A DNA stretch of 64,000 bases from Eledone cirrhosa (GCA_964016885.1 OZ024745.1:98022001-98086000), one strand, 5' to 3'; counted from the stretch's first letter, positions 28,063 through 28,670 are shown. The notes: generated from the sequence alone by a model not told the origin. Numbers and translations: made by a program.

Positions 28063-28670
28063 TGTGAAAAATATGGGGAGAAGAATACTGCATGGTTGCA
28101 CATGGATTACATGTTATAAAATGAGTCCCTCATCAGTGATTTGCCAACGATCATTGTATTTCATCGCATTAAAAATCATATACCTCACGTTGGTGCGACA
28201 ATAACTAAAATAAGTTATTAGGACAATTGAAACGCGTAAAGCGAGTGACACAAGTAAACAACACAGGGGAAAGTTACCGAAGATAGAAAGAAACACAAGC
28301 AACATGGTTATTCTGTCAGTATAAGCTGGGTGAATACATGTGCGAGTAAGAAACAGACCTTCCGCTAGTGAATCCGATGTAAGAAAGAAGAAAAATCTGG
28401 TTCGTAGCGGACGGGGGGGGGTGAGAAGGGGAGAAACAGAGAGTGAGTGAGTGGAAGTGCGAGGAAGAGGTCAGTAGAGAGAAAGTGTTAACTGACATGA
28501 CAGAGGGGACGAAAGAAAGTAAGAGAAACAGAGAGAACGAGGGAGCAGTAAGAGAGAAAGAGAAAAACACAGAATCGCAGTTAGGTAAATATATGTGAAA
28601 AATATGGGGAGAAGAATACTGCATGGTTGCACATGGATTACATGTTATAAAATGAGTCCCTCATCAGTGA
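28063..28670 (-). mobile_element. Retrozyme-like non-coding element, ~530-nt unit with ~75-nt terminal redundancy
   Basis: GTGAAAAATATGGGG...CCCTCATCAGTGA at both ends; homologous to 52783-53457; flanked by (TG)/(TA) repeats. Confidence 0.75.
28125..28224 (-). ncRNA. Non-circularly permuted hammerhead-like RNA, intact core
   Basis: GTCC-TAATAACT(tatttt)AGTTATTG-TCGCA-CCAACG-tga-GGTA-TA-TGATTT-ttaa-TGCGA-T-GAAA-TAC..CGTTGG-c-AAATCA-CTGATGA-G-GGAC. Confidence 0.78.

Follow-up and report, generated by a model that had tools for sequence, protein, structure and literature searches.

How does a short non-coding repeat come to exist in copies that are longer than one repeat unit, each with a start and an end of its own? 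The question is raised by two related sequences in a 64,000-nucleotide (nt) stretch of Eledone cirrhosa DNA (GCA_964016885.1, OZ024745.1:98022001-98086000), hereafter the window. A first-pass annotation made from the sequence alone had described them as differently permuted copies of one element and proposed a retrozyme family, that is, small hammerhead-bearing retroelements with circular RNA intermediates, possibly mobilised by the reverse transcriptase (RT) of Penelope-like elements (PLEs). Our analysis points to a ~0.5-kb non-coding, non-autonomous retroelement family that was likely copied into (TA)n by the RT and endonuclease of PLEs, a reading to which we assign a probability of about two in three.

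Copy 1 (28063-28671, minus strand) comprises one 531-nt unit plus an exact terminal repeat of 78 nt, 1.15 units altogether; positions 28063-28140 and 28594-28671 agree at 78 of 78 sites at a spacing of 531 nt. Read on the minus strand, it starts with (A)TCACTGATGA, the T of which we number unit position 1, and ends with ...CCCCATATTTTTCACA followed by (CA)n and (TA)n. Copy 2 (52783-53459, plus strand) holds 1.3 units of a 518-nt relative and contains two imperfect repeat pairs, one 519 nt apart (52776-52834 and 53295-53353, 92% identity) and the other 518 nt apart (52838-52941 and 53356-53459, 94%). The sequence TCACTGAT occurs in it at 52909 and again at 53427, so that copy 2 runs from unit ~387 to 518, through a complete unit 1 to 518 and on to position 33. 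The endpoints thus differ, being unit 1 and 78 in copy 1 and unit ~387 and 33 in copy 2. The two copies lie in opposite orientation and share 73% identity over 574 nt and 81% over 199 nt. In both, the sense strand is pyrimidine-rich and of low complexity from about unit 90 to 300, and (TA)n tracts are found on either side (27990-28050 on the 3′ side of copy 1; the other tracts are given in Table 1). None of the stop-to-stop frames overlapping either copy had a Pfam match at E-values up to 1. The anatomy given by the first-pass annotation, with a unit of ~530 nt plus ~75 nt of redundancy in one copy, a ~519-nt unit plus extra sequence with other endpoints in the second, and a non-coding, pyrimidine-rich interior embedded in dinucleotide repeats in both, was therefore borne out.

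Fixed 3′ ends and newly placed 5′ ends

Membership of both copies in dispersed families is far beyond chance. In the 3.0-Gb E. cirrhosa genome, 3690 first-look candidates were obtained for unit 1 and 4006 for unit 2, and the 40 candidates scored per unit had identities of 91-98%. A 28-nt motif of family 1, to which copy 1 belongs, has 546 exact matches and a 29-nt motif of family 2, represented by copy 2, has 1088, as compared with none for the reversed control in either case.

Alignment of these copies revealed a simple rule for their 3′ ends. In family 1, the end is fixed at unit ~78 (...TTTTTCA[C/T]A, then (TA)n) in 28 of 30 loci, and 71 of the 80 insertions mapped in a census of the family end at unit 75-85. 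At position ~78 the unit itself reads CACATATATTTACC; the fixed 3′ end thus coincides with an internal UA run. Family 2 uses two sites, ~78 and ~33 (CATATG), the latter being the one used by copy 2. Among 89 motif-bearing arms, 59 end at ~78, 23 at ~33 and seven elsewhere, and the 33-end followed by (TA)n has 216 exact matches in the genome (control, 0). Nearly all mapped copies adjoin (TA)n on the 3′ side, and many 5′ junctions do so as well. Hence, the look of differing permutation results from 3′ sites that are fixed and 5′ ends that vary. Copies are neither random cuts of a ring nor freely permuted, and the idea of permuted copies has to be narrowed: endpoints do differ and copies do exceed the unit, but the 3′ ends are confined to one or two sites. 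Mapping the endpoints of genomic copies, a check that the first-pass annotation had proposed, accordingly returned fixed 3′ sites and variable 5′ ends in the censused samples. Its own counterexample, copies sharing fixed ends as long terminal repeats (LTRs) of a conventional element, is not what we found, since the 3′ ends are shared yet are not those of LTRs.

The 5′ end is placed anew at each insertion, mostly at TA-containing positions. The commonest 5′ coordinate is the TATAT run at GGTATA↓TGAT (the arrow marks the junction), which accounts for 10 arms in each family (n = 129 in family 1, n = 145 in family 2); other frequent coordinates are AAATAC, TTTTATAA and A↓TCACTG. As the 5′ flanks of arms are mostly (TA)n, joining by TA microhomology is suggested. 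In family 2, unit 1 seemed to be a hot spot for arms with flanks other than (TA)n, but this signal came from broken alignments. When two copies shared their 5′ end (27 pairs, 38 copies), they were no closer to each other than random pairs (distance 0.0646 versus 0.0694, permutation p = 0.20), indicating that 5′ ends are not inherited, and copies differing by 1-2% have 5′ ends hundreds of bases apart.

Likewise, longer-than-unit copies are made afresh at each insertion. Subfamily alleles agree between the tail and the full unit of a given copy. At unit site 472, for instance, eight copies are G/G, seven A/A, one T/T and one C/C, and none is discordant. A seemingly fixed difference between tail and unit at position 396/397 (four of eight copies) was traced to an alignment artefact caused by an indel in the window copy.

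Copy length and the nature of the template

The length of copies was determined in family 1 for the first 100 places of the 546 exact motif matches, which cover all of contig 1 and part of contig 2. They form 81 clusters, 62 of them single, 19 double and none triple. Loci were taken with 1.8 kb of upstream sequence and mapped on four copies of a natural, family-typical unit of 534 nt; of 80 insertions mapped, 77 were used (left out were L149, L122 (internal deletion) and L123 (cut at the 3′ side)). Counted from the 3′ end in steps of 50 nt, stop rates stay at 0.02-0.16 through 549 nt and are 0.30-0.53 at 550 nt and beyond. Of the 41 copies that extend to at least 500 nt, only one stops before 550 nt, which means that the unit boundary is passed without a break. 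At the same unit coordinates, 31 of 76 copies stop on the first pass as compared with 24 of 25 on the second (p = 4e-7). Altogether, 40 of the 77 insertions are longer than one unit, and a single one (L208, 2.4 units) is longer than two. Stops typically fall ~20-130 nt after one full unit and give rise to unit-plus-tail copies like those in the window, whose 1.15 and 1.3 units are typical of this peak.

Family 2 behaves in the same manner. Its 78-end arms (n = 59) stop in 31 of 57 cases on the first and in nine of nine on the second pass (p = 0.009), and none exceeds 1.5 units. The 33-end arms were sampled separately as the first 70 places of the 216 exact matches; after removal of four arms of a subfamily designated XXY and one arm of at least 1528 nt that extended beyond the retrieved sequence, 16 of 64 stop on the first and nine of 11 on the second pass (p = 5e-4). 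Arms longer than two units make up 1 of 77 in family 1, 0 of 59 among the 78-end and 0 of 65 among the 33-end arms of family 2.

The XXY subfamily of family 2 has an 838-nt unit, in which a 200-nt stretch (TGATC...-...CCCTCT) is missing from every second unit. Its junction, GGTATA↓GCCAGTC, occurs in 47 exact copies (L234 on contig 1 and 46 other places), and a few loci are XXX. Seven of the 23 usable XXY arms (29 mapped) measure 1048-1501 nt, with tails of 210-663 nt, whereas in family 1 only one of 42 arms at risk exceeds 900 nt (p = 0.002). Thus, an absolute limit on the length that the enzyme can copy is not what restricts the 0.5-kb families.

Which template would yield such copies? The excess of second-pass stops is not accounted for by a long linear concatemer. 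We tentatively prefer a linear RNA of 1.0-1.3 units that would be a transcript of an earlier unit-plus-tail insertion. With 5′ ends scattered in the upstream block it accounts for both the read-through of the boundary and the second-pass stops, and it has to account for tails longer than that of the parent. A putative unit-length circle is possible but rather doubtful. On such a ring the enzyme would displace its own product after one lap, which likewise explains both features; however, a pile-up at the collision point is predicted and was not seen, as the first stops lie at least 17 nt beyond one unit. The one-unit limit on copy length fits the circle and fits the linear RNA of 1.0-1.3 units equally well. 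Re-entry of a linear unit by template jumping seems unlikely. The internal junction is constant except for a CA indel allele in eight of 30 copies, which speaks against jumps onto (UA)n tails that differ in length.

The conserved block and the ribozyme question

Identity between the two families reaches 80-90% over unit 486 to 55 as compared with 45-70% in most of the remainder. This block can be folded. In the predicted structure, a hairpin CCAACN/N′GUUGG encloses GGUAU/AUACC, and UGAUYU in the hairpin loop can pair with ARAUCA directly before CUGAUGA. Across 58 blocks, a sample stratified by the state of one pair and therefore over-representing rare states, 95.6% of the cells in the three drawn helices are paired; two pairs change on both sides, and none of 500 shuffles reaches the covariation score. 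In this sample the closing pair of the hairpin is C-G in 29 blocks, G-C in 10, U-A in four, U.G in four and other in 10, and the variable pair of helix I is U-A in 16, C-G in 15, U.G in 14 and other in 12. Helices I and III are 96-98% paired, one helix I pair changing on both sides.

A rival explanation takes the element for a true retrozyme. According to this explanation, a strand-permuted hammerhead around CUGAUGA cuts the transcript at GGUAUA↓UGAU, the unit-length product is ligated into a circle, and the circle is copied by a Penelope-type enzyme that stalls soon after one lap at its own start. A hammerhead-like reading can indeed be given in both families, with CUGAUGA and GAAA boxes, a candidate helix III (GUAU/AUAC) preceded by GAA, an A as the cut-site base in a UA step, and a candidate helix I (UGAUYU/ARAUCA) directly followed by CUGAUGA. 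Of 246 unstratified blocks, 122 have U-A, 59 U.G and 49 C-G at pair 1.5-2.5 of helix I, and three have a C.A mismatch. Nevertheless, the order of the strands is permuted (16-17-1, then 12-15, then 2-9). A unit contains a single CUGANGA, and GAAA is conserved at one place only, 26 nt upstream of this box; none occurs within 120 nt downstream, and helix II cannot be drawn. Moreover, the covarying hairpin leaves a link of 1-2 nt to helix I. By our own geometric reasoning, so short a link does not permit a hammerhead junction as long as the hairpin stays closed. With Rfam models, neither a hammerhead nor any other ribozyme was obtained over the window at gathering scores or, at E-values up to 10, in either copy, while the hammerhead model RF00163 gave 18 matches over the cut-off among 74 scored candidates elsewhere in the same genome.

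The commonest 5′ end of both families adjoins GGUAUA↓UGAU, four loci (L174, L203, L179 and L368) have unambiguous arm starts at the TGAT of the predicted site, and the junction of the 838-nt subfamily is exactly at GGTATA↓GCCAGTC. However, the 5′ hot spot coincides with the longest TA run in the unit and is explained by microhomology, arms with non-(TA) flanks show a small excess at the site (three of 62 within one base in family 1), and the XXY junction reflects one historical event. The seamless read-through of the unit boundary and the sharp rise of stops after one unit would suit a retrozyme, but no pile-up is present at exactly one lap. Taken together, we regard a true retrozyme as improbable. 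What stands of the proposal is that the families are small, non-coding, non-autonomous retroelements whose template is continuous over the unit boundary; what is not supported is the hammerhead, which lacks an Rfam match and has its core boxes in the wrong order.

Judged from its sequence, the conserved block hardly seems to contain an active ribozyme, and it is more safely read as a structured recognition module. A bolder version, also quite improbable, would turn the 130-nt block into a strand-permuted hammerhead-like ribozyme that lacks a conventional helix II and cuts GGUAUA↓UGAU, yielding unit-length circles. The RT of a PLE would prime on such a ring from a (TA)n DNA end and be thrown off by its own product soon after one lap. 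If this were true, the length statistics of thousands of copies would provide the first trace at sequence level that Penelope-type retrotransposition uses a circular template.

Other candidates for the block or the ring were discarded. A C/D-box small nucleolar RNA was rejected as the snR66 match scored 26 bits against a cut-off of 65, and a circle originating from backsplicing was rejected because the donor-like GAG↓GTATAT is not matched by an acceptor at that unit coordinate. Elsewhere in the genome there is a family with a canonical type I hammerhead (L130-L147, motif CTGATGAGTCCTAAATAGGACGAAAC). Its 3′ end lies ~55 nt downstream of the motif in (TA)n, the 18 best loci carry one ribozyme per arm with no arrays within 1.5 kb, and several loci are head-to-head pairs 96-237 nt apart.

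Penelope-like footprint, alternatives and relatives

Which enzyme copies these elements? In the part of the study by Craig et al. (2021; PMC8557442) considered here, 5′ truncation, partial tandems (pseudo-LTRs), short tails, adjacent inverted 5′-truncated copies and microsatellite targets, with (TA)n named for Naiads, are listed as features that are typical of PLEs and not seen with insertions of the type made by long interspersed elements (LINEs). The same part reports that non-autonomous Chlamys elements form pseudo-LTRs. Our families display 5′ truncation with a fixed 3′ end, a partial tandem upstream of a full unit and a bias towards microsatellites. An inverted 5′-truncated copy abutting the 5′ end is present in family 2 and was not seen in the 81 clusters of family 1. 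Among the first 100 matches of family 2, there are 12 minus/plus pairs within 1 kb, i.e. head-to-head with the 3′ ends outward, and no plus/minus pair; two of the 12 look like one segmental duplication. Of the 33-end arms, 27 of 70 abut an inverted arm, the partner ending at 76-80 in 18 cases and at 33 in two. Three of 20 78-end arms have a partner, all three ending at 33. No pair of two 78-end arms was seen in these samples, though 78 is the commoner end among all arms.

These observations can be accommodated in a mechanism in which the template RNA continues across the unit boundary and its internal UA run would be used for priming by a (TA)n DNA end. Once released, the end of the complementary DNA might be joined to the other (TA)n end via microhomology. 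The conserved, base-paired block of 130 nt around CUGAUGA could serve as the recognition module of the enzyme.

The donor of such an enzyme was sought in the same genome. A GIY-YIG profile gave 10,596 first-look candidates, and all 150 that were scored exceeded the Pfam cut-off. When the best 30 GIY-YIG loci were compared with the units, CT-rich low complexity was the only similarity. The 29 long stop-to-stop frames of the window had no RT or GIY-YIG match, only weak low-complexity ones. A PLE family with a C-terminal endonuclease ends in ...CTCTTTCTCCCTGTTTTCA(TA)n as compared with ...TTCTTCTCCCCATATTTTTCA(TA)n in the elements studied here (in short form, ...CCCTGTTTTCA(TA)n versus ...CCCCATATTTTTCA(TA)n), with only the terminal TTTTCA(TA)n in common, which makes it a lead only. 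In this family, which carries its GIY-YIG domain at the C-terminus (L061, L064, L072, L081 and L085), the 3′ untranslated region measures ~600-660 nt, and other sampled PLE families also end in (TA)n.

Several points weigh against mobilisation by PLEs or against the model built on it. An autonomous element sharing more than ~20 terminal bases was not found among the loci compared, head-to-head arms are missing from all 81 clusters of family 1 (0/81), and LINE-type enzymes also produce fixed 3′ ends and 5′ truncation. A presumed LINE-like remnant ends in the (TA)n tract next to copy 2. As to whether the rise in stops follows the start of each arm, as on a circle, or a fixed unit coordinate, as with a fixed 5′ end of the RNA, stops within unit 78 to 34, a segment of 45 nt that is itself TA-rich, occur in four of 19 33-end arms as compared with five of 19 78-end arms. 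In the 838-nt subfamily the second-pass effect is absent, with none of seven long arms ending in the second-pass block. Furthermore, the censuses comprise the first 100 listed places (contigs 1-3) with exact motifs and thus young copies only, and the helices were drawn from the same sequences in which they were scored, the covarying pairs representing few events. Mobilisation by a Penelope-like RT, as the first-pass annotation had suggested, agrees with the insertion marks, namely (TA)n as the target, truncated 5′ ends, partial tandem structure and arms placed head to head.

The element might instead be a short interspersed element (SINE) moved by a LINE whose 3′ end pairs with (TA)n, tails and inverted arms resulting from read-through transcripts and twin priming. 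Fixed 3′ and variable 5′ ends are in keeping with this explanation. So is an open frame of 87 codons (52470-52733, plus strand; ...RRLRLAGHAHRHPE...GRPRLTYVDAL...DRDRWRELV...), which stops two bases before the (TA)n preceding copy 2 and which, while it has no Pfam match, presumably resembles the C-terminus of the second open reading frame (ORF2) of non-LTR elements. However, the end of this LINE-like remnant (...TTTTACCCGCCTTAG) is unlike that of the element. The head of a SINE derives from tRNA, 5S or 7SL RNA and contains an internal promoter for RNA polymerase III, and no tRNA, 5S or 7SL Rfam match was obtained in or next to the copies. In addition, the arms of a double insertion have sequence in common, and each of them terminates at one of the 3′ sites proper to the element; twin priming on one RNA does not yield such arms. 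We therefore give this explanation little credence. A repeat spread at the DNA level without any RNA step, as a short satellite or segmental duplication, could account for the tandem redundancy inside copies and for the one pair of census loci that looks duplicated, but can practically be dismissed, as the copies number in the thousands, are dispersed among differing flanking sequences, stop at one or two precise 3′ sites and are truncated to graded extents at the 5′ side. The loci in question (L222-L224 and L225-L227, contig 1 at ~34.44 and 35.46 Mb, i.e. 1 Mb apart) have identical spacings of 770 and ~2940 nt and probably represent a segmental duplication carrying a two-armed insertion.

A passenger of PLEs, as we take the family to be, can be compared with known systems. 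Metazoan non-LTR retrozymes carry one self-cleaving type I hammerhead per unit, according to the parts of Cervera and de la Pena (2020; PMC7229834) and Li, Clavereau and Pollet (2026; 10.64898/2026.07.22.740005) considered here; they are further characterised by tandem repeats of 150-450 bp, from dimers to large multimers, and by linear and circular unit-length RNA. As far as these parts go, the elements in E. cirrhosa resemble retrozymes in being small, flanked by AT-rich sequence, non-coding, non-autonomous, redundant from head to tail and of proposed PLE dependence. A further likeness is the position of CUGAUGA 75 nt from the 3′ end, the canonical hammerhead of the other family in this genome being ~55 nt from its (TA)n end. 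In contrast to the retrozymes so described, they have no detectable hammerhead, their unit measures 518-534 nt (838 nt in one subfamily) instead of 150-450 nt, and copies comprise 0.1-1.7 units instead of dimers to large multimers. The hammerhead itself (RF00163, RF00008 and relatives) differs from our block in strand order, in having a helix II and in being recognised by the models.

Closest in kind are non-autonomous Chlamys elements without a hammerhead, which occur in green algae (e.g. MRC1 of Chlamydomonas). In the account of Craig et al. (PMC8557442), as far as considered here, these are likewise non-coding, form pseudo-LTRs, are arranged head to tail and lack a canonical hammerhead; in contrast to the animal family with its (TA)n targets, they insert into (CA)n or (C)n, and autonomous families with which they have their 3′ ends in common are identified. 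Naiad and the canonical endonuclease-bearing PLEs, in that account, have 5′ truncation, partial tandems, inverted copies, short tails and (TA)n targets in common with our elements, yet are coding elements of 3-4 kb, whereas no open reading frame with a family match is present here. Some Naiads are stated there to carry hammerhead 'half cores' that fit no descriptor. We thus view the family as a hammerhead-less, ribozyme-less variant of the retrozyme type. A keyword search of the literature found no description of a hammerhead-less Penelope-type passenger in an animal, which is no proof of absence.

The portion of Craig et al. (PMC8557442) used here calls for an in vitro system to clarify the origin of partial tandems, tails and inverted arms in PLEs. 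A passenger of 0.5 kb present in thousands of young copies turns the question of tandems and arms into one of statistics. Any model is constrained by a template that is continuous over the unit boundary, by copying that stops soon after one unit and by two-armed insertions that end at fixed sites 45 nt apart. Retrozyme-like passengers can apparently thrive without a recognisable hammerhead, and pipelines for repeat annotation would likely class such elements as unclassified SINEs.

Table 1. Positions of the two copies, their parts and the adjoining microsatellites, counted from the first base of the window.
Feature	Position	Strand	Description
Copy 1	28063..28671	-	Family 1; unit 1..531, then 1..78; 5′ end (A)TCACTGATGA, 3′ end ...TTTTTCACA
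Upstream tail of copy 1	28594..28671	-	78 nt, unit 1..78; identical to the 3′ terminal 78 nt
3′ terminal 78 nt of copy 1	28063..28140	-	Stops at the fixed 3′ site of the family
Conserved structured block of copy 1	28130..28193	-	
First half of this block, sense order	28188-28193; 28173-28184; 28159-28165	-	CCAACG; GGTATA↓TGATTT; GATGAAA
Second half of this block, sense order	28144-28149; 28130-28142	-	CGTTGG; AAATCA-CTGATGA
Second block of copy 1 conserved between families	28437..28469	-	CT-rich on the sense strand
Microsatellite 3′ of copy 1	27990..28066		(TA)n then (TG)n; target microsatellite
Microsatellite 5′ of copy 1	28671..28764		(TA)n
Copy 2	52783..53459	+	Family 2; unit ~387..518, 1..518, 1..33; 3′ end at the alternative site, ...TTATTCATAT
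Complete unit of copy 2	52909..53426	+	518 nt, from TCACTGATGA up to the base preceding the next TCACTGAT
Conserved block of copy 2, upstream partial unit	52852..52918	+	CATCAAC, GAGTATATGATTT, GATGAAA, GGTTGG, AAATCA-CTGATGA
Conserved block of copy 2, 3′ end	53370..53436	+	Box is CTGATCA, one change from CTGATGA
Microsatellite 5′ of copy 2	52734..52783		(TA)n
Microsatellite 3′ of copy 2	53453..53512		(TA)n

Three further features of the window were recorded. At 766-823 on the minus strand, there is a partial tRNA-like match (model positions 8-63 of 71) with 32.2 bits at a cut-off of 29. Between 41684 and 47874 on the plus strand, long open frames overlap in all three plus frames; their Pfam matches (DMA, CCM2_C) are weak and repetitive, and the region is probably a tandem or low-complexity repeat. 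Beside copy 1, a unique stretch of 130 nt (27861-27989) is located between two (TA)n tracts. It has a perfect inverted repeat of ~22 nt at its end (AGGAAAAAGTATGAC ... GTCATACTTTTTCCT) and is possibly the end of another element that targets (TA)n.

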